Shown here: positions 773-63,665 of the stretch, in pieces | Numbering within the stretch: the first letter of the stretch is position 1 | Layout: each line of letters begins with the position of its first letter | Origin: an uncultured Sphaerobacteraceae bacterium | GTDB taxonomy: Bacteria; Chloroflexota; Chloroflexia; Thermomicrobiales; UBA6265 | NCBI GenBank assembly: GCA_964610045.1 | Contig: CAZSUN010000008.1 | Location: 5,236-69,235 of the forward strand | Length of the DNA stretch: 64,000 bases | Direction: 5' to 3' | Notes under the pieces: generated by a model | Databases searched by the model: none | Seen by the model: the letters and a program-made list of their open reading frames with translations, nothing else | What the model was told of the DNA's origin: nothing | Translations under genes and position numbers: made by a program

Positions 773-3700
773 CTACACGGCGGAGATGAACTCGCTGACG
801 ATGTAGCCGGTCCCGACCGTGGCGCTGGTCGCCCGGTACCACGAGTACCCCCCGGCTGATGTCGGCCCGCTGACGATCGTCAGGCGATGTCCCTGCGGCA
901 GGGACGCGATGATCGTGGCGGAGGTCGATGCGCTCGCTCGCAAGCGGACGTTTGGATCGGTCGTCTGGACGATCGCGCCCGCGGGATACGTGCCGGGCGG
1001 CGTGGAACCATCATCGTCTCCAAGTCCGTCCTCGATGCACCATCCGGTTGAGCCGCCCGATGTCCGGATTTGCCACCAGGTGTAGCCATTGGCGATCGTT
1101 GGTCCACCGAGGATTGTGCCGGTGGCGCCGACATTCAGGATGGTGACGACCGAAGCCGAGGTACCGGCCGCTGAACGCAGGTTGATGCGCTCGGTGACCC
1201 GGACAGCGTCGCCGACCTCGAACACTTCGGTTGGAGGAGGCGTGGTGGTTCGCTCGACCAGCCAATCCTGCACGGCCCAACCGGTGCCCTGGGAGGTTTG
1301 GATTTGCCACCAAGTGTAGCCGCTGCCGGCGCTGGGCCCAGCCAGCACGGTGCCGACAACACCAGGTTGCAGGATCGCCACGATACTGCCACTGGTGCTC
1401 GCGCTGGAACGCAGGTTCAACCGCTCGGAAACCTGAACGGCATCCCCGATGTCGAACTTCCCGGTGGGTGGCGGGGTCGTCGTGGTTTCCTCGAGCCAGT
1501 CCTGGACGGCCCAGCCCGTTCCCTGCGAGGTCTGGATCCGGTACCAGGTGTACCCGCTCCCGGTGCTCGGTCCGGCGATAACCGAACCGGTCACTCCGGG
1601 CTGGAGCACGGCGATCACCGATCCACTGGTATTCGCCGCCGACCGCAGGTTGAGGCGTTCTGACACGCGAATTGAGTCGCCGACCTCGAACTTGCCCGTT
1701 GGCGGAGGGGTGGTCGTGGTTTCGACCAGCCAGTCCTGGACCGCCCAGCCAGTGGTGCCGCCGCTGGTCCGGATTTGCCACCAGGTGTAGCCGTTGGCAG
1801 TACGTGGTCCAGCCAGCACCGTCGCGGTTGTGCCTGCGGGCATCGACAGGACAACAGAGCCTGAGGTCGACGGCGCCGAACGCAGGTTCATCCGCTCGGT
1901 CACCCGAATGGAATCGCCAACCTCGAACTTCCCGGCCGGTGGCGGGGTTGTTTCCCGGAGATAGTTTTCGACGATCCAACCGCCACCGTACGGAGCGCCG
2001 TACGCGCCGTACCAGACGTAGCCATTGACGGCTACCGGAGCCACGGTCACCTCGAAGGTCGCCCCGGATGGAGCGCTGGCGGTCACTCCCTGGGCGAGTC
2101 CCGGCCTGGCCCGGACATTCACGGACTGGGTCGTGACCACATAGTCGCCGATGGCAAACGCGGCGGCCGGCGAATCATCGAACGGAACCGGCTCGATCAG
2201 ACTGCTGGCAACCCAACCATCGGCCACGTCCATGACGCGAACCTGGTACCAGTCAAGCCCGTCGCCCTCCAGTGGTCCCATCATCACGTACGCCAGGGAA
2301 TTGGCGGGAACCGATGCGACCACCGCGGCGCTCGTAGTGGGTCCTCGCCGGAGATTGCCGGTCGAGGTAAAGCGGATATTGAGACCGAACGGATACCCGG
2401 TGCCGTCTCCCGGGAATGGCGGCGGGTCCACGATCAGGAAGGCAGCCGATACCCAACCGGTGGGACCGGAGTCGATCGGATCGATCTGATACCAGTTGGC
2501 GCCACCAGTCGTGGTCGGGCCGTCGGTGACCCAGGCGAGGTCACCATTGGCGATGCTGCCGGTCACTGTTCCGTTGGCCGAACTCCGGATGTTCAGTGCG
2601 CCGCCGGTGTCCGTTTGCACGCGCACGCGATCGCCAGGAGCGATCCCGGCCGGTGCGCCGGTTTCGAGAACGCCGGTGTCGAGGGTCTGGGCAGCAAGTT
2701 GGCGAATGGAGGGCAGTTCGTTCCAGAGCATATTGCCGGGACAGGAGGTGCCGTTGACATCCCGGTGCGACGAAATCGTTGGCAGTTCGGGAGCCTCGTG
2801 GAAGTCGGATCCACCGGTGAGATCGAGATCTCGCCCCACCCAGGCAGAGATGGAGACCAGTGCGGACTTCGCCGCTTCGGGGAGCGACGTCGACATGAAA
2901 TTGCCGATCACCGAAATGCCTGAACTGCCAACCGCATACTGGAAGGCATGACCGCCGATGACATCCTGGCCGCCGTATCTCCCCTGGTAGATCCGACCGT
3001 TGTGGTCGACCAGGTAGTTGTAGCCAATGTCGCCCCATTCCTGCTCGACGGCATGGTAGTAGTAAATGGACCGGATGGCTCCGGGCACATCGACCGGTCG
3101 GTTCGCGGTGGCCGTATGGTGGACGATGATGTGACTGACGGTTTCGTATTCGGGCGGCCAAATCTCGCCGAAGCTGGCAAAACGCCAGGTCTCGTTCGCG
3201 CCCCACTGGGCACGGGTGACGATCTCCGGCGGCGCGAGCGTATCGTCGTTCAACGTAAAGGCCGAGATGGCTGGTTGCGGGACGCTCGACAGGTCGTCTT
3301 CCCACGGGCCATCAGTGGGATCGATATACAGGAATGACAGACCGCTGACCGTGCCGGGAACTCCGGCGATGTCGGTGGTCTGGAACCGGACGAACGACTC
3401 GCCCGACGTGAAGATCAGCGCCGTGAACAACCGGTCGTCGCGGGTCGGTTGCCCGCCATCCTCGGTCTGCGCTGCCATCTGCACCGTGTCTGACCAGGTG
3501 ACACCATCCTCGCTCACCTGCACCTGGATCACCGGCCATTCGCCCACCGTGCCGTCCCAACTGGCGCCGAGCGCCCAGAATGGGTAGGCCGCCTCGAACG
3601 TCGCCCATTCGCCGGAGGCTGCGGTCGCCAGGGTTTCGCTGTCGGGAACGAACCGCTCAGCTCGCGTGCCACCGGATTCCTGTGCGGCCGCGATCCTCGC

Positions 3701-3955: not shown

Positions 3956-4080
3956 ATCGGGACGATTCTACAACAGCCCCCCACCAGAAGCGCTTCCCGA
4001 TCGGTCACCTGCTGCGGTGTGATGCAGGCACTCGCCAGGCCGGACGATCCCGGGTGGAGCAGCACTCATGGCCAACCAGA

Positions 4081-4113
4081 CAAGGCCAGCCGCGTGATAC
4101 GCGGCTGGCCTTG
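4081..4113 (-). terminator. Perfect 14-bp GC-rich hairpin just downstream of the first VanW gene (candidate terminator, no U-tract)
   Basis: caaggccagccgcg / tgata / cgcggctggccttg. It lies 18 nt after the stop codon at 4132. The following sequence is not U-rich. Confidence 0.45.
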
Positions 4114-4131
4114 TACGAGCGGGAATTGCTG

Positions 4132-8593: not shown

Positions 8594-8646
8594 AAGGAAG
8601 GCCGCAGGTGCAAAGGTGCCTGCGGCCTCTCCTTCCTTAAACGACC
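8594..8646 (-). repeat. REP-like hairpin element with AAACGACC tail (variant of family A)
   Basis: ggccgcagg / tgcaaaggtg / cctgcggcc, flanked by aaggaa...ttcctt and followed by ttaaacgacc. The tail matches the copies at 52722 and 63656. Confidence 0.5.
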
Positions 8647-9502: not shown

Positions 9503-11164
9503 ATGCGATCGCTGCGAAGCGCCAAACGCCTGCCCGACGATGCCACCATCCCCGAGCAGCTCCTCTACTGGCTGTTCACTCCCGTTCGTCTCTACCGGCA
9601 GCGCACCGCCGTCCAACTGGTCATTAGTTATGTCATGATGACCGTTATCACGGTCCTGCTCCTCGTCGCTGGTGTGGTCGCCATCGTCTGGTGGCCACGC
9701 ATCGCCGAAATCGGCAACTTCGAGGACATCACCCTGGATTACGGTCTCGGTGAAAAGGCGCGATCCTACGCCTGGTGGCTCGATCCGGATGGCCTTGCGC
9801 CGATGATGACCGAGGGACCGACCGATGCCGAACTGGCAACGCTCGAACAGCAACTGGCAGACATCGTCCACTACGAGGTGACGGGCTTCGACGGTCCGGT
9901 CAGCAACAACCACGCGTTCCAGATCGCGCATGTTGCGATCGTCAACATGGATGGCATGATCGTTGCCAGCGACGACGCCAGCTGGGTGTCACAGGGTTCT
10001 CCACTGTCGCGTTTCGCCCTCGGTTCCACCCGGTCGGTCGTCGCCCGTACGCTCGTGCTGGCCGGCCAGCCAGATCCGACCTGGGGCACCCTCTACTCAC
10101 TCGAGGTCGAACACGAGCGAACCTCGGCATCCTATCCATTGATCACCCGGGACGGCGAGATGATCGGCGTCATCGTGCTCGAAGGCAATCCCATACGCTC
10201 GGTGATCGGTGGCGAATCCCGGTTCGGGCTCATCCACTATTTCCTGGGGCAACTCCGGTACGTGATGGTGCTGATCATCGTCCCCGCGATTGTCGTCGCC
10301 ATTCCGTTCGGCGTCTGGCGGGCACGGTCGATGTCCCGCCGCCTCGAAGGCATGGCCGCCGCCGCCGACGCAATGGCCGAAGGCGAACTCGACACTCGCA
10401 TCCCGGTCAAGCAACGAGACGAGATTGGACGTCTCGCCGAGCGATTCAACGAAATGGCGTCGACCATCTCCACAACCGAACGGCAGCGGCAGGCATTCAT
10501 CTCAAACGTTTCGCACGAATTACGCACCCCCATATCGATCATCCAGGGCACCGTCGAACGTCAACTCGAGAGCCAACCACCGCCGGATCCCGAGCTTGTC
10601 ACGTCGCTGCAGGTCGTCCGGCGGGAAGCGGACATGCTCGAGCGGATGATCGCAGACCTCTTCACCCTGACCCGCCTCCGGGAAAACAGCCTGCGTCTCG
10701 AACGCAAGGCCTTCGATTTTGCCGACCTCGCCAGCAAGACCGTTGGCGGCATCAGTTCCCTTGCCTGGACGCAGTCGCGGGTCAGCATGGAGTCCCTGGT
10801 CCCGCCGGACTTGCCACTCGTCTACGGTGATGAGACCCGGATCCGGCAAATCCTCAACAACCTCCTGTACAACTCCCTCCGGCACACGCCCGAAGGCGGG
10901 TTGGTTGTGCTGCAGGCGAAACCAGCCGGTGCCATGGTCGAGGTCGCCGTGAGTGACACCGGCCTCGGTATCCCGGAAGACGAAGTCGAATTCGTGTTCG
11001 ACCGCTACTACCAGGCGGAGCGGGGCAACCGGCACGATGAAGGGAGTGGCCTGGGCCTGAGCATCGTCCAGCAGCTCGTTCGCGCCCACGGTGGTGACGT
11101 CAATGTGTCATCCCGCCAAGGCGAGGGAACCACCTTCCGCTTCACCTTGCCACAGGCAAGCTGA
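9503..11164 (+). CDS. Sensor histidine kinase (two TM segments, HAMP, HisKA, HATPase_c)
   Basis: H-box FISNVSHELRTPISII. N/G boxes LNNLLYNSLRHTPEGG, DTGLGIP and GSGLGLSIV. It starts 7 nt after the regulator stop. Confidence 0.9.
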   Translation: MRSLRSAKRLPDDATIPEQLLYWLFTPVRLYRQRTAVQLVISYVMMTVITVLLLVAGVVAIVWWPRIAEIGNFEDITLDYGLGEKARSYAWWLDPDGLAPMMTEGPTDAELATLEQQLADIVHYEVTGFDGPVSNNHAFQIAHVAIVNMDGMIVASDDASWVSQGSPLSRFALGSTRSVVARTLVLAGQPDPTWGTLYSLEVEHERTSASYPLITRDGEMIGVIVLEGNPIRSVIGGESRFGLIHYFLGQLRYVMVLIIVPAIVVAIPFGVWRARSMSRRLEGMAAAADAMAEGELDTRIPVKQRDEIGRLAERFNEMASTISTTERQRQAFISNVSHELRTPISIIQGTVERQLESQPPPDPELVTSLQVVRREADMLERMIADLFTLTRLRENSLRLERKAFDFADLASKTVGGISSLAWTQSRVSMESLVPPDLPLVYGDETRIRQILNNLLYNSLRHTPEGGLVVLQAKPAGAMVEVAVSDTGLGIPEDEVEFVFDRYYQAERGNRHDEGSGLGLSIVQQLVRAHGGDVNVSSRQGEGTTFRFTLPQAS

Positions 11165-14565: not shown

Positions 14566-14601
14566 CGGCCGTGGCATCCCGCCTGGGTAATGCCACGGCC
14601 G
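14566..14601. terminator. Hairpin between convergent genes (12-bp perfect stem, 12-nt loop)
   Basis: cggccgtggcat / cccgcctgggta / atgccacggccg. It lies between the stop at 14529 (+) and the stop at 14609 (-). Confidence 0.5.
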
Positions 14602-16690: not shown

Positions 16691-16725
16691 GGTGACGGAC
16701 CTCCCTGGTTGACGGTAAATGTCAA

Positions 16726-16755
16726 CGTTCGTAGCGGCGATCCTCCGCGATCGCC
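16726..16755 (+). repeat. REP-like unit (family A): CGTTCGTAG plus 7-bp hairpin
   Basis: cgttcGTAGc ggcgatc ctccgc gatcgcc. The head is identical to the copy at 52608. Confidence 0.5.
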
Positions 16756-16800
16756 TTCAATGGATCAACCTCTCACCAGCGGGCAGGGCTTTCCACAACC

Positions 16801-26226: not shown

Positions 26227-27630
26227 TTACCCCGGATCGCCGCGCCCGATCCGGCGAGCGGGAACCCCGACGACCGTCGCGCCACTCTCGATATCACGTG
26301 TCACCACCGCCCCTGCCCCGGTGCGAGCGCCCTCTCCAACGCGGACGGGCGCCACCAGCACGGTATCGCTCCCAACGAAGGCATGGTCGCCGATGACGGT
26401 GGCGTGCTTGGTCGTGCCATCGTAATTCGCGGTAATCGCACCGGCGCCGATGTTGACGTCCTCACCCACCCGTGCGTCACCGAGATACGAGAAGTGGCCA
26501 ACCCTGGTCCCCGGCCCAAGCGTGGAGTTCTTCACCTCCGCGGAGGTCCCAACATGAACGCCGGGGCCAACCACCGTGTTGCCCCGGAGATGCGCATACG
26601 GTCCGACATCGGATCCGGCGCCGACTTCGGAATCGGTCACGGTGGACGACCGGACCTGGGCGCCATCACGCAGGACCGCGTTGTGCAGCACGGCGTGTGG
26701 ACCAACTACGCACCCGCGGCCGATAACCGACTTCCCTGTGATGATGGAGAACGGATGGATCACCGTATCGGCGTCAACAGCCACGGTCTCATCGATGAAG
26801 ACGGTCTCCCCGCCGATAATGGTGACGCCGCGTCGCTGCAACCGCTCGCGGACGTTTTTCCGGATCACTGCATCGGCATCAGCCTGCTCAACCCGGTCGT
26901 TGATGCCCAACGACACATCGCTGTCGCCAACGACTGCCGAGACGGGCCAGGGCTCGTCCTCTGCCGTCTCCGAGACGGCGAATGCGACGATGTCGGTCAG
27001 CATGAGTTCCCCGGTCTCCGGGTTGACTGGCAGGCGAGCGAGTGTCTCACGGGCCCAGGCGGCATCGAGCACCATGATCCCGCTGTTGATTTCGGTTTCA
27101 CCCTGACGAAGATGCGGTTGGTCGTTCTTCTTTTCGACAATGCGGGTGACATGACCCACGGCATTGCGCTCGATGCGGCCGTAATTGCGCGCGTCTGGCA
27201 GGACGCAGGACAGGATCGTGACCTTGCACCGGGAAGCCCGGGCACCCTCTATCAACCGGTCTATCGTCTCACCGGTCAGGAGTGGGCTGTCGCCAAGCAG
27301 CGAGACGAGCCAATCCACCGGTTCCAGGAAATCCAGGGCCGTGCGCACCGCTCCCGCCGTGCCGTAGGGATGAACCTGCGGCGTCGCGTCGAACTCGCCT
27401 TCCATTCCCAACCGGCTCGCAAGGTCGACCATGTCCGGACTTACGATGGTCACCAGTTGGTTGGGCTGGACGGCGAGTCCGGCCCGGATCACCCGTTCCA
27501 CGATCGGGACGCCCCCGACCGGGTGCAGGTGCTTGGGTGTTGCGGACAGCATGCGCGTCCCCTGGCCGGCGGCAAGGACGGCGACGGCAATCCGGTCACC
27601 TGTTTTTGGGGAGTGGGGAGAGGTTGTCAC
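26227..27630 (-). CDS. glmU: Bifunctional GlcNAc-1-P uridyltransferase / GlcN-1-P acetyltransferase
   Basis: LAAGQGTRM, and C-terminal hexapeptide repeats ending NYDGTTKHATVIGDHAFVGSDTVLVAPV. The ORF-track ATG at 27720 abuts the 3' CCA of the tRNA, so I prefer the in-frame GTG at 27630. Confidence 0.88.
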   Translation of the reverse strand: MTTSPHSPKTGDRIAVAVLAAGQGTRMLSATPKHLHPVGGVPIVERVIRAGLAVQPNQLVTIVSPDMVDLASRLGMEGEFDATPQVHPYGTAGAVRTALDFLEPVDWLVSLLGDSPLLTGETIDRLIEGARASRCKVTILSCVLPDARNYGRIERNAVGHVTRIVEKKNDQPHLRQGETEINSGIMVLDAAWARETLARLPVNPETGELMLTDIVAFAVSETAEDEPWPVSAVVGDSDVSLGINDRVEQADADAVIRKNVRERLQRRGVTIIGGETVFIDETVAVDADTVIHPFSIITGKSVIGRGCVVGPHAVLHNAVLRDGAQVRSSTVTDSEVGAGSDVGPYAHLRGNTVVGPGVHVGTSAEVKNSTLGPGTRVGHFSYLGDARVGEDVNIGAGAITANYDGTTKHATVIGDHAFVGSDTVLVAPVRVGEGARTGAGAVVTRDIESGATVVGVPARRIGRGDPG

Positions 27631-27719: not shown

Positions 27720-27793
27720 TGGCTCGCGGGCCAGGATTCGAACCTGGAATAAAGGTTCCAAAGACCCTTGTGATACCTTTTCACCACCCGCGA
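27720..27793 (-). tRNA. tRNA-Gln (anticodon UUG), CCA encoded
   Basis: Hand-folded cloverleaf. Acceptor tcgcggg/cccgcga, T-arm ccagg-ttcgaat-cctgg, anticodon arm agggt-cTTTGGa-acctt with TTG centred. U1-A72 and discriminator G73 are as expected for bacterial tRNA-Gln. Confidence 0.85.
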
Positions 27794-29677: not shown

Positions 29678-29730
29678 GGGCCGACAGACCTTCCGGCCTG
29701 CGGCCGTCAGGCCGATCGGCCCCTACGATG
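29678..29730 (-). repeat. REP-like unit (family A variant): GGGCCGA...TCGGCCC followed by CTAC
   Basis: gggccga / 31-nt loop with a nested ggcctg...caggcc hairpin / tcggccc ctacgatgg. Confidence 0.4.
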
Positions 29731-29869
29731 GGTGATTCGACCAACCTACACCTGTGAGCGCAGCGCACCCGGGGCGGACGACCACCTCGCCTGGCGGCTC
29801 GGTGGGTCCGCCCGTACGATGAGATGGCGGGACGCCCGGAGGGCACGCGCGGCGCATCCGCCAGCGCCG

Positions 29870-36178: not shown

Positions 36179-36212
36179 GCCCGGATTCCCATGGAATCCG
36201 GGCATTGTTGTG
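36179..36212 (+). terminator. Intrinsic terminator candidate after the zinc-ribbon gene
   Basis: gcccggattcc / cat / ggaatccgggc (11-bp perfect stem) followed by attgttgtg, 30 nt after the stop. Confidence 0.6.
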
Positions 36213-36549
36213 CCCTCCCTGGCTGCCCTGCGCCTGGAGCGGATTGCGGGGAGGTTGATCGCAGAAACAGGGCAGCCACACGTTCGCTGACGCTCCACCC
36301 AACCCCTGACCCACACCCCTCCTGACCGCCCCTCATCCTGAGGGGCGGGACCGTCCCAGACTCGGGAAGTGGAACCGTGGGCTGCCCCGACAAACCTCCG
36401 AGCGCCGATCAATTCCACCGCAAAGCACTGGAATTCCGAGTCCGGATGAATGGTTCCCGGTGGCGGATCGCGTGTCTCCGTCGAGTTCAGGCAGGGACAC
36501 GCGACCCGCCGCTACCACACATCCCAGGAGTCAGCATCTGGAGTTGGCG

Positions 36550-40861: not shown

Positions 40862-40900
40862 GACAACGGGCCGTTCCCTGCCGGGGAACGGCCCGTTGTC
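40862..40900 (-). terminator. Perfect 17-bp hairpin immediately downstream of the 942-aa gene (no U-tract)
   Basis: gacaacgggccgttccc / tgccg / gggaacggcccgttgtc, 20 nt after the stop at 40921. Confidence 0.5.
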
Positions 40901-44738: not shown

Positions 44739-44813
44739 TTGTCACTCCGAGCGCCAGCGAGGAATCTGCAAACGGCACGATCTTCAGATTCCTCGCTTCG
44801 CTCGGAATGACAA
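44739..44813. repeat. Family B composite palindrome (two inverted GTCAYTCCGAGC..GCGAGGAATCT units, 18-nt spacer) between the two permease genes
   Basis: Units at 44741..44767 (gtcactccgagcgccagcgaggaatct) and 44786..44811 (agattcctcgcttcgctcggaatgac). Confidence 0.8.
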
Positions 44814-47126: not shown

Positions 47127-47372
47127 TGGAGTGCCTCCATCCCATGCCAGCAACGTGTCGCGATCGAGCCCCGATCGGTCACCCCCATGTGGGGTACGGG
47201 CATGTCAAGCCAGTCATGCCTGCATGATGTCACAGTGCACGATGGGCGGCAAGAAATGGCCCGATTGGGACGGCGCGCACAGGATGCCCCACGCCCTCAC
47301 CGGAACAACCAGCGCGCAGGGGAGGACCAGCGGCGCACGTCCAGATGGCGCCGCCCGTATGTTCACTGCGCC

Positions 47373-47460
47373 GCGTGTGTCCTCCCGTGGTGCAGTCCCC
47401 ACCGATCACGGGAGGACACACGCTCGGCTGGCGCCTCGCTGATCCTCCCCTACCAACACG
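47373..47460 (-). repeat. Family A-related element with two mutually exclusive hairpins, downstream of the Cho-like gene
   Basis: A 17-bp perfect inverted repeat pairs gcgtgtgtcctcccgtg (47373..47389) with cacgggaggacacacgc (47407..47423). The same GGGAGGA (47410..47416) can instead pair with TCCTCCC (47443..47449), which is followed by CTACCAACACG. Confidence 0.6.
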
Positions 47461-47517
47461 GTACTCGACGGAGCCTGTGTGCGATCCGGCAGAGGTCCAC
47501 CGGGGGGTGGGCGAGCG

Positions 47518-49894: not shown

Positions 49895-51982
<2,088 letters not shown>

Positions 51983-52451: not shown

Positions 52452-52607
52452 TCCGCTGCGGGCCCGGCACACATCCCTGTAGCGGTCGCCCTCCGCAATC
52501 TCCCTACACATCAAATCGCCCACCCCTGGACGACCTGGCGACCGTCACATCCGGTTCCGGGAGGGTACATGCGGTTCATATGGAATGCGGGTTGGCCGCG
52601 ATGGATC

Positions 52608-52731
52608 CGTTCGTAGGGCGGGCCCTGTGTGGCCCGCCGCTGCAGTCAACCGCGCAGGTTCTGTCCTAACTCCGTATCAGGTAGGGGAAGGGCCGACACA
52701 CGCTCGCTGGTCGGCCCCTACAAACGACCGA
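52608..52731. repeat. Family A inverted pair (REPIN-like): CGTTCGTAG-hairpin on the plus strand, and hairpin-CTACAAACGACCGA (GTAG on the minus strand)
   Basis: The left unit, 52608..52638, reads GTAG ggcgggcc ctgtgt ggcccgcc. The right unit, 52681..52731, reads gggccgac acacgctcgctg gtcggccc ctacaaacgaccga. Confidence 0.75.
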
Positions 52732-53552: not shown

Positions 53553-53690
53553 TGACGTGGTTCCTCCAGGTGGCTATGAAACTCAACGGGGGACGAAGAC
53601 AATCCGACAGGGCACGGGCCGACACATCCGCCTGCACATTGACGGGCCAGGTGCCGCCTGCGACGGCGGAAGGTGCGGCCCCGTCCCGTG

Positions 53691-54758: not shown

Positions 54759-55765
54759 CCTTCGGCAACCTCTTCGGGCCACGCCTCGTCCGGTTCGACC
54801 CGGGCGCAGAAGCGGGGGTTCGCGATGCCGACGATGTCGGAGACGCGCGTGAAGCCGTTGATCGTCATCCAGGCGGCAAGTTCATCGATGAGACGCATCA
54901 GGACGGCAGGATCGGCGAAGACCGCTGTCCCGACCTGGATCGCACTGGCGCCGGCCATCAGGAATTCGAGCGCGTCGTTGAGCTTCGCGATGCCGCCGAG
55001 TCCGATGATCGGAATGCCGACCGCCTGGGCGACCTGGTAGACCATTCGCACCGCGACCGGTCGCACGGCGGGGCCGGAGAGCCCGCCGGTGTGGTTGGCG
55101 ATCACGGGGCGGCGGTGCCGCGTATCGATCGCCATCCCGACAAGCGTATTGATCAGCGAAATTGCGTCTGCACCGGCTTCCTCGACTGCCTGGGCAATCT
55201 CTACCACATCGACCGCGCCGGGGCTGAGCTTGACGATCATCGGCAGCGTCGTGGCGGCCCGGACCGCCCGCGTGACATCGGCCGACATCACCGGGTCCCA
55301 GCCGAAGCAATAGCCGCCGGCGTTGATGTTCGGGCAGGAGATGTTGACTTCGATCGCGGCGACACCGGGAACTTCGTCCAGGCGTCGGGCCATCAGCACG
55401 AAATCCTCGATCGACTCCGCCGAGATGTTGACGATGGCCGGCACGTCCCACGATTCCCAGATCGGCGGGTACTTCCGGATGAACCCCGAAATACCGGGAT
55501 TCTGGAGCCCGATCGCGTTGAGCATGCCGGACGGTGTCTCGGTGATGCGCGGCATCGGGTTGCCGGAACGCGGTTTTGGGGTAATGCCCTTGCTGACGAA
55601 CGCGCCGAGACGCTGGACATCCACGATCCCGCTGTATTCGAGCCCGTACCCGAAGCATCCCGAAGCTGGTATGACCGGATTGCGCAGCACCAGTTCCCGG
55701 GGGTTGCGCGGGGCGAGATCGACACGGAGATCGGGGGCGGTCACCAGGGATTCGCTCACGACCAC
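54755..55765 (-). CDS. pyrD: Dihydroorotate dehydrogenase B, catalytic subunit
   Basis: NPVIPASGCFGYG, VNISCPN, GGLSGPAVRPVA, GIGGI. Confidence 0.9.
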   Translation of the reverse strand: MVVSESLVTAPDLRVDLAPRNPRELVLRNPVIPASGCFGYGLEYSGIVDVQRLGAFVSKGITPKPRSGNPMPRITETPSGMLNAIGLQNPGISGFIRKYPPIWESWDVPAIVNISAESIEDFVLMARRLDEVPGVAAIEVNISCPNINAGGYCFGWDPVMSADVTRAVRAATTLPMIVKLSPGAVDVVEIAQAVEEAGADAISLINTLVGMAIDTRHRRPVIANHTGGLSGPAVRPVAVRMVYQVAQAVGIPIIGLGGIAKLNDALEFLMAGASAIQVGTAVFADPAVLMRLIDELAAWMTINGFTRVSDIVGIANPRFCARVEPDEAWPEEVAEG

Positions 55766-56586
55766 ACCAGCTCATCCATATCGAACACCGGCCCTTCGAC
55801 ACACGACGTTTTCATGCCATGCCTCGTCTCGACCACGCATCCCAGGCACGCACCTACCCCGCAGGCCATGGTTCGCTCGACCGAGACCTGCACCGATGGA
55901 GCATTCCCGATCCGGGCCCGCAGTACCTCGCGGCGCAGGGAGCGAAACATCGGCTCCGGGCCACAGGTGAACACCTGGTCCGCCCATGGGATGTAATTCG
56001 GAATGAGATCGGTGACGAATCCGTGATGCCCCGCGCTGCCATCGTCGGTCGCGACGACGTACTCGACTTCCCCCGGCAGGTGCTGCGGGGTCAGGAGCCC
56101 GCCCGCATGCATGGCGCCGAGCAGCCAGGTCACATTGAGATCGGCCTTCACCGCTTCCGCCGCCAGCATCCGCAGCGGGGCAGCACCAACACCACCGGCG
56201 ACCATCAGCAGGTTGCGGCTCTTCGGGTTGATGGAGAACGTGTTGCCGAGCGGTCCCAGGACATCGAGGACAGCACCCACTGGTTGCTGGACCAGCCAGG
56301 CGCTACCCCGGCCATAGGGCCGGACGAGTACGGTCAATTCACCGCGATCGGGATCGGCGGCGTAGACGGAGAGCGGCCGGCGCAGGAGTGGATCGGTGGA
56401 CCACTCCGTCCGGCAGAGGATTTCGACGAACTGGCCGGCTCGCGCCGTCGCCACCAGGTTCGGCGGCGCGACGAACGAGATCAGCGACGAATCGCCCATC
56501 ACGGGCTCGACGGATGTGATGGCGCCGCGAAACTCGCGCGACCAGCCGGGTTCGCGTTCATGGGTTGTCGGTGCCGGTACTGCCAT
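55756..56586 (-). CDS. pyrK: Dihydroorotate dehydrogenase B, electron-transfer (FAD/2Fe-2S) subunit
   Basis: C-terminal cluster motif MACGVGACLGCVV, RPLSV FAD motif. ATG at 56586 is preferred; the ORF maximum is the GTG at 56607. Confidence 0.85.
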   Translation of the reverse strand: MAVPAPTTHEREPGWSREFRGAITSVEPVMGDSSLISFVAPPNLVATARAGQFVEILCRTEWSTDPLLRRPLSVYAADPDRGELTVLVRPYGRGSAWLVQQPVGAVLDVLGPLGNTFSINPKSRNLLMVAGGVGAAPLRMLAAEAVKADLNVTWLLGAMHAGGLLTPQHLPGEVEYVVATDDGSAGHHGFVTDLIPNYIPWADQVFTCGPEPMFRSLRREVLRARIGNAPSVQVSVERTMACGVGACLGCVVETRHGMKTSCVEGPVFDMDELVWS

Positions 56587-56621
56587 GCGGTCCCCGTCTC
56601 GATCCACGCCATGTATCGGGG

Positions 56622-56700
56622 TCTGTAGGGGTTGCCCCGTGGCGACCCTGATTTGGCGGAAACCCCAGGGCCGCCACGGGGGCGACCCCTACAAACGAAC
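56622..56700. repeat. Family A inverted doublet (REPIN-like) filling the carB-pyrK spacer
   Basis: tctGTAGgggttgccccgtggcgaccctg / 15-nt spacer / cagggccgccacgggggcgaccccTACaaacgaac. The arms match at about 27 of 30 positions. Confidence 0.8.
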
Positions 56701-59700
56701 CTAGTACCCCACGTTGGCCTGGCGATAGGTCTGGATCGGGGCGACGGTGTAGATCGAACTGGCCTTCTCCATCGCGTCGACGACAACCCGGGCGGTGTCG
56801 ACCGACGTGATGCAGGGAATGCCGCGCTCGACCGCCGCACGCCTGATTTCCAGCCCGTCCAGGATCTCCTTGTCGGCTGGTCCCGGCGTGTTGATCACCC
56901 CGTGCACCGTACCGTCGAGGATCACATCCAGCATATCAGGCGACCCGCGCCCGATTCGCTTGGTCACCATTTTCACGGGCATCCCGTTGCGCTCGATCAT
57001 CGAGGCCGTGCCCTCGGTGGCATAGAGGTGGAACCCCATGCGGACGAGCTTCTGGATGAATTCCAGCGCGTCCGTCTTGTCTTCGTCGGCCACGGTCACC
57101 AGGATGTTGCCTCGTTCCGGCAGGGAGAGCCCGGCCGCAATCAGCGCCTTGAAGAACGCCGATTCGAACGTCCGGTCGATCCCCATCACCTCACCGGTCG
57201 ACTTCATCTCGGGTCCGAGGTGAACCTCCACACCACGCAGCTTGGCCATCGAGAAGACGGGAGCCTTGACCGCCATCAGGGGCTGGCGTGGATGCAGGCC
57301 GCCGTTGAACCCCTGCTCCTTGAGTGTCTGGCCGAGCATGATCCCGGTCGCCAGCTTCACCATCGGCACGCCGGTGGCCTTGCTGAGGAACGGGACCGTG
57401 CGCGATGAGCGAGGGTTGACCTCGAGCACGAAGATGCGCCCGGCGTGGATGACGTATTGGATGTTGATCAGGCCGCGGGCGCCGATGTTGAGCGCGATCC
57501 GGGTCGTGTAATCGACGATGGTCTCCACGTCGGACGGGAAGAGATTGATACCAGGGTAGACCGCGAACGAGTCGCCGGAGTGGACCCCGGCCCGTTCGAT
57601 GTGCTCCATGATGCCGGGAATCAGGACCTGATCGCCGTCGCAGATGGCGTCGACCTCGACTTCCTTGCCGATCAGGTACTTGTCGACGAGGACCGGGTGC
57701 TCGGGTGTCAGCGACGCCTGGTTGCGGATGTAGCGGGCGAGCTGGTCGGCACCGTAGACGACCTCCATCGCCCGTCCACCCAGAACGTACGACGGACGCA
57801 CGAGTACCGGGTAGCCGATGCGGGAGGCGACCGCTTCGGCATCGTGCAGGGAGGTGACAGCCGCCCCGGCCGGTTGCGGAATTTCGAGACCGCGCAGGAA
57901 TGCCTCGAACCGGTGCCGATCCTCTGCCAGGTCGATCGATTCAAGCGACGAGCCAAGGATCGGTACGCCGAAGTCGCTGAGGGGTTTGGCGAGATTGATC
58001 GCGGTCTGCCCACCGAACTGGACGATGGCGGGCGGCAGTGCCGCGGTAACGCCGCCTGCCTCGTGCAGCATGATTTCCTGCACGCTCTCGGCGTCGAGCG
58101 GCTCGAAATAGAGCCGGTCACTGGCGTCGAAGTCGGTGGAGACGGTCTCCGGATTGGAGTTCACCATGATCGACGAGACGCCGTTCTCGCGAAGCGCGCG
58201 CGAAGCCTGGACCGAGCAATAGTCGAACTCGATGCCCTGCCCAATCCGGATCGGGCCGGAGCCGACGACGACCGCCCGCTCACCCGCGAGCGGTGTGGCC
58301 TCGTCCTCTTCCTCGTAGGTCGAGTAGAAGTACGGTGTCTGGGCGGCAAACTCGCCGGCGCAGGTGTCGACCATTTTGTACACCGGGGCCATGCCGTGTT
58401 CGCGACGCAGCGCGGTAATGCTGGCGACTGGTTGGCCGCTACAACCGGCGATCTGGCGGTCTGAGAAACCGGCCCGCTTGGCCACCCACAGCAACTCCGG
58501 GGTCAGGTCCTCCGCAGACATGCGGCGCTCAAGGGCGACGAGTCCTTCCAGCTTCCAGAGGAACCATTCGTCGATGGCGGAGAGTTCGTGGAGCTTCTCG
58601 ACCGTCACATTGCGGCGGAGCGCCGCCATCAACGCCCACATCCGGATATCGGTCGGACGCCTGACGAACTCCAGGATGGTATCGAGGTCATCGCCCCAGG
58701 CGGGATCTTCCCAGGACATGTCCTTCGCGGTCGTCTCCAGCGAGCGGACCGCCTTCTGGATCGCCCCTTCGAAGGAGCGGTCGATCGCCATGACTTCGCC
58801 GGTAGCCTTCATCTGGGTGGTGATGGTGCGATCGGCACGCGGGAACTTGTCGAACGGCCAGCGTGGGATCTTCGCGACAACATAGTCGAGGGCGGGTTCG
58901 AAGGCAGCGGTGGTCTGCCCGGTGACGACGTTGATCAGCTCGTCGAGCCGCTTGCCGATTGCGATCTTGGCCGAGAGCCGCGCGATCGGGTAGCCAGTGG
59001 CTTTCGAGGCCAGGGCGGACGATCGCGAGACGCGCGGATTGACCTCGATCACCCCGTAGTCCATTGAGTCGGGATCGAGCGCGTACTGGACGTTGCACCC
59101 ACCCTCGATTCCCAGCGAACGGATGATGTTGATCGCCGAAGCGCGCAGCATCTGGTATTCGCGGTCCGACAGTGTCTGCGACGGGGCGACGACGATGCTG
59201 TCGCCCGTGTGAACGCCCATCGGATCCATGTTTTCCATGTTGCAGATGGTGATGCAGGTGTCGGCGCTGTCGCGCATGACCTCGTACTCGATCTCCTTCC
59301 AGCCAAGGAGGGAGCGTTCGAGCAGGATCTGGTGGATCGGACTGGCATTGAGACCGGAGGTGACGATACGGTCGAGCTCTTCCGGCGTGTGGGCAACGCC
59401 GCCACCGGTGCCGCCCAGGGTGTAGGCGGGCCGGATCACCAGCGGCAGCGGCGTGGTTTTCGCGAACTCGCGGGCCTCGTCGACCGAGTGGACGATGACG
59501 CTCGGAATCGCTGGTTCGCCGATGCGCTGAAGCAGGTTCTTGAAGAGGGCGCGGTCCTCGGCCTCCTGGATCGCCTTCAGGGGAGTGCCAAGCAGGCGTA
59601 CACCGTACTCGTCGAGGATGCCGAGCTCGGCGACCTTGACAGCCAGATTGAGGCCGGTCTGCCCGCCAAGCGTTGGCAGCAGGCCTTCCGGCTTTTCCCG

Positions 59701-59997
59701 CTGGATCACCCGGCGAATGACATCGGGCGTCAACGGCTCGATGTAGACGGCATCGGCGACGTCCTCGTCAGTCATGATCGTGGCGGGGTTGGAGTTGACG
59801 AGGATGGTGCGGACGCCGTCCTCGCGCAGGGCGCGGCACGCTTGCGATCCGGCATAGTCGAATTCGGCGGCCTGGCCAATCACGATCGGGCCAGAGCCGA
59901 TCACCAGCACGCTCTCGGGGGTCTTCTTCGATCCTCGTGTCACCGCTGTTACCACCAATTCCCTCATCCCTGTGTCATGTTCGTAGAGCCGTACCAT
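56701..59997 (-). CDS. carB: Carbamoyl-phosphate synthase large subunit
   Basis: LVIGSGPIVIGQAAEFDYAGSQ, duplicated ATP-grasp halves, C-terminal MGS-like domain. The start could be 59967 instead. Confidence 0.95.
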   Translation of the reverse strand: MVRLYEHDTGMRELVVTAVTRGSKKTPESVLVIGSGPIVIGQAAEFDYAGSQACRALREDGVRTILVNSNPATIMTDEDVADAVYIEPLTPDVIRRVIQREKPEGLLPTLGGQTGLNLAVKVAELGILDEYGVRLLGTPLKAIQEAEDRALFKNLLQRIGEPAIPSVIVHSVDEAREFAKTTPLPLVIRPAYTLGGTGGGVAHTPEELDRIVTSGLNASPIHQILLERSLLGWKEIEYEVMRDSADTCITICNMENMDPMGVHTGDSIVVAPSQTLSDREYQMLRASAINIIRSLGIEGGCNVQYALDPDSMDYGVIEVNPRVSRSSALASKATGYPIARLSAKIAIGKRLDELINVVTGQTTAAFEPALDYVVAKIPRWPFDKFPRADRTITTQMKATGEVMAIDRSFEGAIQKAVRSLETTAKDMSWEDPAWGDDLDTILEFVRRPTDIRMWALMAALRRNVTVEKLHELSAIDEWFLWKLEGLVALERRMSAEDLTPELLWVAKRAGFSDRQIAGCSGQPVASITALRREHGMAPVYKMVDTCAGEFAAQTPYFYSTYEEEDEATPLAGERAVVVGSGPIRIGQGIEFDYCSVQASRALRENGVSSIMVNSNPETVSTDFDASDRLYFEPLDAESVQEIMLHEAGGVTAALPPAIVQFGGQTAINLAKPLSDFGVPILGSSLESIDLAEDRHRFEAFLRGLEIPQPAGAAVTSLHDAEAVASRIGYPVLVRPSYVLGGRAMEVVYGADQLARYIRNQASLTPEHPVLVDKYLIGKEVEVDAICDGDQVLIPGIMEHIERAGVHSGDSFAVYPGINLFPSDVETIVDYTTRIALNIGARGLINIQYVIHAGRIFVLEVNPRSSRTVPFLSKATGVPMVKLATGIMLGQTLKEQGFNGGLHPRQPLMAVKAPVFSMAKLRGVEVHLGPEMKSTGEVMGIDRTFESAFFKALIAAGLSLPERGNILVTVADEDKTDALEFIQKLVRMGFHLYATEGTASMIERNGMPVKMVTKRIGRGSPDMLDVILDGTVHGVINTPGPADKEILDGLEIRRAAVERGIPCITSVDTARVVVDAMEKASSIYTVAPIQTYRQANVGY

Positions 59998-60003
59998 GGC
60001 TTG

Positions 60004-60077
60004 TTGTCATTCCGAGCTTGCGAGGAATCTGTACATGACTGTCGGGTCAAGATTCCTCGCTGCGCTCGGAATGACAG
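60004..60077. repeat. Family B composite palindrome filling the carA-carB spacer
   Basis: Units at 60006..60030 (gtcattccgagcttgcgaggaatct) and 60050..60075 (agattcctcgctgcgctcggaatgac), with a 19-nt spacer. Confidence 0.8.
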
Positions 60078-60084
60078 TCCGGTT

Positions 60085-63623: not shown

Positions 63624-63665
63624 GGGCCGCCACACGCTCGCTGGGCGGCCCTTACAAACGACCGA
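63624..63665 (-). repeat. Family A unit: GGGCCGCC acacgctcgctg GGCGGCCC TTACAAACGACCGA
   Basis: The loop and tail are identical to the copy at 52690..52731. The stem differs by a compensatory pair. Confidence 0.75.

Follow-up and report, generated by a model that had tools for sequence, protein, structure and literature searches.

The 64,000-nt stretch of contig CAZSUN010000008.1 analyzed here (hereafter the window) carries a family of short hairpin repeats, which are probably repetitive extragenic palindromic (REP) sequences of the GTAG super-family. They are organized in part as head-out doublets resembling bacterial interspersed mosaic elements (BIMEs) and REP doublets forming hairpins (REPINs), and lie in the chromosome of an uncultured member of the Thermomicrobiales (Chloroflexota). 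Nine solid units were found, each with a GTAG-type foot directly 5' of a GC-rich 8-bp hairpin whose stem opens with GGG. The conserved foot follows the consensus (G)GTCGTTTGTAG, with GTAG as its minimal form and with GTAA (unit E), GTAC (unit G2) and a degenerate GCAG (unit F') as variants; in units A, B, C, D, F and G1 the hairpin starts at offset 0 from the GTAG. Loops are either short (4–6 nt, pyrimidine-rich and mostly ending in GT) or long and structured, several of them measuring 24–29 nt. The nine units form three head-out doublets (A/B, C/D and F'/F), which carry the GTAG on their outer side, one tandem pair (G1/G2) and one singleton (E). Head-out is the dimer type preferred in most families according to the literature.

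All unit sequences are written on the GTAG strand, and covariance-model scores are those of cmsearch. The doublet A/B occupies a 507-nt convergent spacer between a 72-aa gene and a phosphoribosyltransferase (PRTase) gene. Its left half, unit A (52605–52638, plus strand), combines the foot (AT)CCGTTCGTAG (also written CGTTCGTAG) with the stem GGCGGGCC/GGCCCGCC and the loop ctgtgt; it scores 39 bits (E 4.9e-9) and folds as DNA at -11.2 kcal/mol (z -3.2). The right half, unit B (52690–52731, minus strand; 46.3 bits), has the foot GGTCGTTTGTAG and the stem GGGCCGAC/GTCGGCCC around the 12-nt loop cagcgagcgtgt. The doublet C/D fills the 93-nt carB-pyrK spacer: unit C (56617–56648, plus strand; 34.6 bits) consists of the foot GGTCTGTAG, the stem GGGTTGCC/GGCGACCC and the loop ccgt, and unit D (56668–56700, minus strand; 46.9 bits), whose foot begins immediately past the carB stop codon, of the foot GTTCGTTTGTAG, the stem GGGTCGCC/GGCGGCCC and the loop cccgt. 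Both of these stems include one G-T pair. The singleton E (63624–63665, minus strand; 43.2 bits) lies in a spacer of about 480 nt between an EndoIII-like gene and a His_Phos_1 gene and joins the foot GGTCGTTTGTAA, where GTAA replaces GTAG, and the stem GGGCCGCC/GGCGGCCC to the loop cagcgagcgtgt known from B. In unit F (47410–47461, minus strand; 30.1 bits), a foot GTGTTGGTAG and a stem GGGAGGAT/GTCCTCCC enclose a 24-nt loop, cagcgag..gagcgtgt, which is a lengthened form of the B/E loop. Its head-out partner F' (47318–47386, plus strand; E 0.083) has the GCAG foot, a stem GGGAGGAC/GTCCTCCC as in F and a long loop cagcg..cgtgt. Unit G1 (29678–29734, minus strand), a moderate member at 17.2 bits (E 6.5e-3), shows the foot CATCGTAG, the stem GGGCCGAT/GTCGGCCC and a structured 29-nt loop, and folds at -18.7 kcal/mol (z -2.65). 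Unit G2 (29772–29825, minus strand; E 0.11), with the foot CATCGTAC, the stem GGGCGGAC/GTCCGCCC and a 26-nt loop, follows G1 head-to-tail in the same convergent spacer.

The original prediction had listed at least eight family units, and at each position the sequence it gave is present. Membership holds for A, B, C, D, F and E, the last with its GTAA foot as described, and moderately for the unit at 29730 (G1). The two remaining entries did not stand in the same way. The one at 16726 is only a weak candidate (H, 16723–16756, plus strand), with the foot CGTTCGTAG, a 7-bp stem GGCGATC/GATCGCC set off by 1 nt, 8.9 bits (E 1.4) and a fold z of -1.3; the one at 8594 (I, 8594–8646, minus strand) is a doubtful variant in which GGTCGTTT is followed by AAGG instead of GTAG and by a long bulged hairpin, and which was not picked up by the covariance model, the 8-nt GGTCGTTT being all that it has in common with the family. 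Units F' and G2 are members additional to that earlier list, and besides the two inverted doublets recognized before, A/B and C/D, both of them head-out, F'/F is a third. Two further spots may be decayed members: 36270–36399, with a loop-like CAGCGAACGTGTG and poor arms at 36277–36289 (cmsearch E 0.15), and 53553–53690 in the Na/Ca-exchanger/PRTase spacer, with an isolated ..GTGTCGGCCC.. that equals the loop end and 3' arm of a B-type unit.

The units stand out clearly from the sequence background. At 64.5% GC, GC-rich hairpins are common, and 794 positions in the window can begin an 8-bp hairpin, so that a few of them might simply happen to follow GTAG. However, GTTYGTAGSGS occurs four times in the window against 0.10 expected, the 17-nt head with up to three mismatches three times against 0.18, and GTAR with an adjoining 8-bp hairpin seven times; in 100 dinucleotide shuffles, this last pattern averaged 0.78 occurrences and reached 4 at most. 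These excesses exclude chance. The foot is moreover conserved over up to 12 nt, all units fall into the small non-coding fraction of the window, and identical or near-identical copies occur on unrelated contigs. Together with the stem covariation described below, the excesses of head patterns and hairpins effectively refute a chance origin, to which we assign a negligible probability.

With respect to their location, 9/9 solid units lie in non-coding DNA, as originally claimed; in a gene map based on GC content at third codon positions (GC3), 87% of the window is coding and 13% non-coding. The spacers are convergent for A, B, G1 and G2 and unidirectional for C, D, E, F and F', and only the doubtful variant I sits in a divergent one. 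PMC3733652 describes the same distribution for extragenic REPs, mainly in convergent and unidirectional spacers. The local density is nine units per 64 kb, which would extrapolate to a few hundred copies in a 3–4 Mb genome if the window were typical; GTAG-type REPs typically number more than 100 per genome.

Stem pairing is under structural constraint. Ten units were aligned (A1), of which the window supplied six and other contigs four; standard pairs are found in 80/80 stem cells, and four of the eight stem pairs show compensatory changes on both sides (14 cells). The covariation score is 0.531 compared to 0.147 after shuffling, a value reached by 0/500 shuffles, and in shifted registers at most 51% of the cells pair. 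The stems seen so far are GGGCCGAC, GGGCCGCC, GGGTCGCC, GGGAGGAT, GGGTGGAC and GGCGGGCC. Two units from other contigs, L008a and L011, pair perfectly although the search that retrieved them fixed only the foot and six bases at the start of the 5' arm and left the 3' arm free. Single units fold as DNA at -6.6 to -18.7 kcal/mol, and the doublet C/D as a whole forms a single long hairpin of -30 kcal/mol (z -5.3). A/B, in which the two stems differ, does not form one symmetric hairpin and rather resembles the Y/Z pairs of BIMEs, whereas the doublets on contig L005 have identical arms and fold as a whole into a single hairpin, as a symmetric REPIN does. The REP/REPIN architecture proposed for these repeats, a GTAG foot beside an imperfect palindrome, is hence borne out by compensatory stem changes, extragenic location and head-out doublets, including one that folds as a single hairpin.

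Next to this conservation of format, the occupancy of orthologous spacers varies strongly. The carB neighborhoods of relatives with 87–92% CarB identity were compared with the window, complemented by a further carB-pyrK junction (L008), and the carB-pyrK spacer was found in five states of occupancy. It holds no unit in L006 and L007 (33 nt) or in L018 (71 nt), the doublet C/D in the window (93 nt), a different head-out doublet in L004 (219 nt), another palindromic insert in L005 (218 nt) and a heads-in doublet with the stems GGGTGGAC and GGGCCGAC in L008. The right unit of the L004 doublet (10049–10122) is a longer, long-loop relative of F. Between the PRTase and 72-aa genes, the window has a 507-nt spacer harboring A/B. 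In L005, this spacer is 228 nt long and contains another doublet, which consists of two copies of GGTAG-TGGCCGCC-cttgt-GGCGGCCA, and in L006 it is 8 nt. Unit E is absent from the orthologous spacer of L004 (107 nt), and the Na/Ca-exchanger/PRTase spacer carries a doublet in L005 but at most a remnant in the window. Thus, at four orthologous spacers the relatives and the window differ in whether a unit is present or in which one it is. The original prediction had suggested such a presence/absence comparison, and the differing occupants and empty sites point to a dispersed element that inserts and turns over in a lineage-specific manner. Its distribution among the relatives is patchy as well: L005 holds two doublets and L004 and L008 one each, and no members were found in 23 kb of L006 or in 23 kb of L018.

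A copy of unit B that is identical over 42/42 nt lies in an unrelated context on contig L003 (296–337). There, it is followed by GTTTTT and lies about 300 nt upstream of a CRISPR array (640–2033) on a 2-kb contig. This contig was binned as 'uncultured Microbacterium'; more probably it belongs to a relative of the source organism and was put into the wrong bin.

Two alternative explanations without a RAYT were considered. The units could be non-mobile functional hairpins, that is, terminators lacking a T-tract, stabilizers of mRNA 3' ends or protein-binding sites, with the foot reflecting a common function. Most units indeed lie downstream of genes, with D directly after the carB stop, the G-T pairs occur on the GTAG strand and the L003 copy precedes a T-run. 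The differing occupancy fits poorly to a conserved regulatory hairpin, however: orthologous positions are not conserved but empty or taken by other units or orientations in relatives, and 4/10 units are antisense to local transcription. We therefore consider this explanation improbable. Intrinsic terminators proper can be set aside; a generic terminator scan flagged none of the units and the copies in the window have no T-tracts. A separate class of headless perfect hairpins was observed in intergenic DNA at 728–768, 4080–4114, 14566–14601, 36179–36203, 36326–36348 and 40862–40900. They have stems of 10–18 bp and mostly 3-nt loops (11–12 nt in two), none is followed by a T-tract, and they may be the real T-tract-less terminators of this genome, a class distinct from the GTAG units which fits the terminator role better.

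Alternatively, the doublets might be miniature inverted-repeat transposable elements (MITEs), moved by a DDE transposase, with the GTAG-GGG... arms as their termini. Three doublets do have inverted ends of the form GTAGGGG...CCCCTAC. Against this, doublet lengths range from about 70 to 145 nt with mutually unrelated interiors, the arms of A and B carry different stems, and what is conserved as a module is the individual hairpin with its foot rather than the doublet. With no uniform interior, no evident target-site duplications and both a singleton (E) and a tandem pair (G1/G2) in the family, we rejected the MITE explanation as very improbable.

Under the preferred reading as REPs, mobilization would depend on a REP-associated tyrosine transposase (RAYT). 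A covariance model trained only on this GTAG family (R1) detects REPs in or around 5/6 RAYT loci fetched for comparison (E 1e-6 to 2e-3), with seven matches at E<1e-3 in 28.6 kb. The same model applied to the 64-kb window (128 kb of searched strand) gave no match at E<1e-3 beyond the six training units. From this difference it appears that the units share their format with REPs physically tied to RAYT genes. The best non-training match in the window is an in-gene sequence at 27452–27484 (plus strand; 19.5 bits, E 1.5e-3) with a GTTG foot and the stem GGCTGGAC/GTCCGGCC; it matched either by chance or because it is REP-like and intragenic.

Among the loci fetched, the most instructive is on a plasmid of another member of the Chloroflexota, Leptolinea sp. 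HRD-7 (AP024711.1, L013), where a RAYT gene at 181938–183326 is annotated as 'hypothetical protein'. The protein passes the NCBIfam model NF047646 REP_Tyr_transpos (82.2 bits, cutoff 80), and footed hairpins flank the gene on both sides, e.g. TTTGTTCGTAG-GGGTGGAT-cgc-ATCCACCC (29.4 bits, E 1e-6). The flanking units TTCGTAG-GGGTGGAC-cgc-GTCCACCC have a stem identical to that of the family member L008b, and downstream of the gene, long-loop and short-loop units alternate head-out three times in a BIME-like array. This locus is an unannotated REPtron. On three further contigs, REPs of the form GTAG-GGGCAACC-ccccgt-GGTTGCCC and ...-ccttgt-... lie within the RAYT open reading frame (ORF) and leave the frame unbroken (L015 3237–3262; L016 3243–3268 and 3312–3337; L017 4308–4335 and 4346–4373).

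Several observations weigh against the reading of the units as ordinary REPs of a resident RAYT. Neither the window nor about 100 kb of relatives' DNA contains a RAYT or IS200-like gene detectable with two hidden Markov models (HMMs). An HMM of 14 published RAYT/TIRYT sequences reached at best E 1.2 in the window and the relatives' loci, and one of 120 RAYT homologues, which retrieved six RAYTs serving as positive controls (E 1e-51 to 1e-98), otherwise reached at best E 0.83 in the same DNA. For the window, this agrees with the earlier statement that it has no RAYT-like gene. Furthermore, no RAYT could be tied to the Thermomicrobiales by tblastn or profile searches: tblastn of the Roseiflexus RAYT rca_2775 and of E. 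coli RayT against plasmids gave no Thermomicrobium match, and none of 7990 matches in a profile search with rca_2775-type RAYTs was attributed to the Thermomicrobiales. Nunvar 2010 and the text supplements of the HuH phylogenomics paper likewise have no Thermomicrobiales RAYT entry. The copy number given here is that of the 64-kb window, filled and empty sites have diverged too far in their flanks for insertion boundaries to be set, and the pairing statistics are inflated by ascertainment, as most units were chosen for having a hairpin. The exact extended head is also rare, with one true match in 596 Gb of genomes and two in Joint Genome Institute (JGI) metagenomes.

In addition, the modular recombination of stems and loops is not predicted by simple copy-and-paste descent. 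The stem GGGCCGAC carries cagcgagcgtgt as its loop in B and L003, ttcat in L008a and cccgt in L011, and the loop cagcgagcgtgt sits on two stems (B, E), with a longer version on a third (F) and a still longer one in L004. Published GTAG families are described in like terms, with sub-families that differ by complementary substitutions in the stem and that use alternative loops. The 12-nt conserved foot is longer than the canonical GTAG; GGTCGTTTGTAG is found in B, E, L003, L008a and L011 and near-identically in D. Together, the 12-nt foot (GGTCGTTTGTAG) and the freely recombining stems and loops might indicate a RAYT subclass with a new specificity in Thermomicrobiales, or a REP family spreading without a RAYT, a proposal that we regard as unlikely. 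If a RAYT of new specificity were involved, the guide or cleavage sequence that it reads on single-stranded DNA would be an extended one; any stem able to pair would then serve, whatever its sequence, and new units could arise on different hairpins rather than only by copying.

A further alternative is that the units are orphan or relic REPs of a genome that has no active RAYT, with copies that are decaying or that are spread or kept by another process such as recombination or another nuclease. This would agree with the missing RAYT in 64 kb and in the relatives' loci, with the degenerate units (GCAG in F', GTAC in G2) and the remnants at 36270–36399 and 53553–53690, and with literature reports of REPtron loss by deletion and of CGTC REPs without a dedicated transposase. 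But the copy of B on L003, which is identical over 42 nt and has other genomic surroundings, argues for recent spread, and the different young-looking doublets at one spacer in close relatives suggest ongoing activity. Moreover, at one RAYT gene per 3–4 Mb, the gene is not expected in a random 64-kb window. We thus regard orphan REPs as unlikely.

Under the REP reading that we favor, the most likely mechanism is as follows. A RAYT (TnpA_REP, HUH-Y1), presumably encoded once elsewhere in this genome and acting as the mobilizer, would recognize the foot and hairpin on single-stranded DNA. By cleaving and rejoining the DNA, it would place single units or doublets in intergenic spacers. Copies would be retained at sites that tolerate them, downstream of genes, and, being co-transcribed there, might secondarily affect mRNA 3' ends.

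Database scans for further copies returned few hits. Scanning a genome collection (596 Gb) with the foot and conserved loop, leaving the stem free, gave three matches, one of them true. The other two were rejected as family members: they are antisense to a conserved coding motif, ..VTRSLVGPYITSLEM.., which we take, from reading the motif alone, to be DhaK-like. In these two matches (L001 765–790, L002 4477–4502), located in a Chloroflexi metagenome-assembled genome (MAG) and a proteobacterial MAG, the 26 nt TGTAGGGGCCGACCAGCGAGCGTGTG are identical to the left arm and loop of unit B (52697–52722) and lack a 3' arm. The agreement is probably a coincidence of GC-rich codons, even though five free stem bases also agree. 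A scan of JGI metagenomes with the extended foot gave four matches, comprising two true ones (L008, L011) and two that we dismissed as chance (L009, L010). Neither the genome collection nor the metagenomes yielded the window's own copies. None of the 22 candidates from a protein database search with peptides encodable by a B/E-type unit scored.

As for the surroundings, the window is a chromosomal housekeeping stretch. It encodes carB (56701–59997, minus strand), pyrK (55756–56607, minus strand) and ligA (49934–51982, plus strand) as well as carA, pyrC, an NAD kinase, the PRTase and the EndoIII-like protein. The top database matches of CarB are MAG proteins labelled Thermomicrobiales or Chloroflexia, the closest being 95% identical, and a lookup of the identical protein gave no entry. 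At Rfam gathering thresholds, a tRNA gene (27723–27793, minus strand) was the sole match in the window, and no family matched at the GTAG units. The cumulative GC skew falls from 0 to -0.75 across the first 32 kb and rises slightly afterwards, with a weak turning point at about 31–32 kb. A 62-aa ORF overlapping unit F' (47214–47402, minus strand) passes the GC3 filter; it is probably spurious, as REP units can seed false small ORFs in a GC-rich genome.

A second, unrelated palindromic repeat family was also observed, of the form CATTCCGAGCG..AGCGAGGAATCTG-[16–19 nt]-CAGATTCCTCGCT..CGCTCGGAATG, at 44746–44806 and 60008–60084 in the window, at 3450–3590 in L005 and at about 780–870 in L011. A longer element related to it, GGAGCGAAGAATCCC...GGGATTCT.TCGCTCC, contains GCGAAGCGCA.TCGGCCGCAGGCCGA internally; this element fills the carB-pyrK spacer of L005 and adjoins the REP unit in L011.

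With the present data, an uncultured Thermomicrobiales lineage of soil type joins the known carriers of GTAG-type REP/BIME elements; the current understanding of REP biology remains unchanged. The close relatives include REP-rich and apparently REP-free fragments and show the carB-pyrK spacer in its five states. This group is therefore convenient for testing REP abundance against RAYT presence outside the Proteobacteria, and for following doublet turnover at hot spots. For annotation, the units account for puzzling long intergenic spacers and for spurious small ORFs such as that at 47214–47402.

Comparison with known systems places the units among well-described elements. Di Nocera, De Gregorio and Rocco (2013) sorted REPs into the GTAG and CGTC super-families, and their study (PMC3733652) names GTAG repeats in Chloroflexi, namely GTAG-23 in Thermomicrobium roseum and Roseiflexus castenholzii, with Chloroflexus aggregans also listed. 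GTAG-23 comes from the same phylum as the window, T. roseum even from the same order, and it shares with the window units a GTAG foot immediately before a GC-rich stem opening with GGG. A Roseiflexus REP back-translated from the REP-encoded peptide GRPQGVAPT (PMC3733652 supplements) reads GTAG-GGGCGACC-ccttgg-GGTCGCCC and thus has the 8-bp stem and roughly 6-nt loop of units C and D. However, GTAG-23 of T. roseum is described as block-clustered and inserted in small palindromes, whereas the window units are dispersed and no such palindrome was seen. The text on GTAG-23 does not mention the 8-nt GGTCGTTT extension upstream of GTAG.

The Leptolinea REPtron has a foot, GTTCGTAG, that matches units A and H, and its head-out alternation of long-loop and short-loop units is like that of A/B and F'/F. 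It belongs to another class (Anaerolineae) and differs in its 49% GC, its 3-nt loops and its tandem array beside the RAYT gene; the window has neither RAYT nor array. REPs inside the RAYT ORF have been described for TnpA_REP subclass 2.4, as have three G-C pairs at the stem base (PMC6006769). The REPs within the RAYT ORFs of L015–L017, compared with that subclass by this position only, have the format and loop style of D (cccgt) and of the L005 unit L005b (cttgt) but stem from other lineages with 55% GC and carry GACGCC instead of GGTCGTTT upstream of GTAG.

In E. coli, REPs are likewise extragenic imperfect palindromes with a 5' GTAG recognized on single-stranded DNA. They are paired in inverted orientation as two types (Y, Z) within BIMEs, and lie in convergent and unidirectional spacers; RayT (TnpA_REP, YafM) is encoded once, at another place in the genome. 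Their stems are longer than those of the window units, bulged and of different sequence, and for E. coli the binding of IHF, gyrase and Pol I and the effects on mRNA were shown experimentally. The REPINs of Pseudomonas fluorescens (Bertels and Rainey 2011) and the SMAG elements of Stenotrophomonas maltophilia are GTAG-footed GC-rich hairpins too, and their sub-families also show compensatory stem changes. As with C/D, their head-out doublets, which have been proposed to be what moves, form a single long hairpin; in the window, only C/D is symmetric in this way, while A/B and F'/F pair unlike units. Altogether, the repeats described here are genuine REP/BIME elements of an ordinary kind, such as many bacteria are known to carry, consistent with the GTAG REPs already published for Chloroflexi in 2013.

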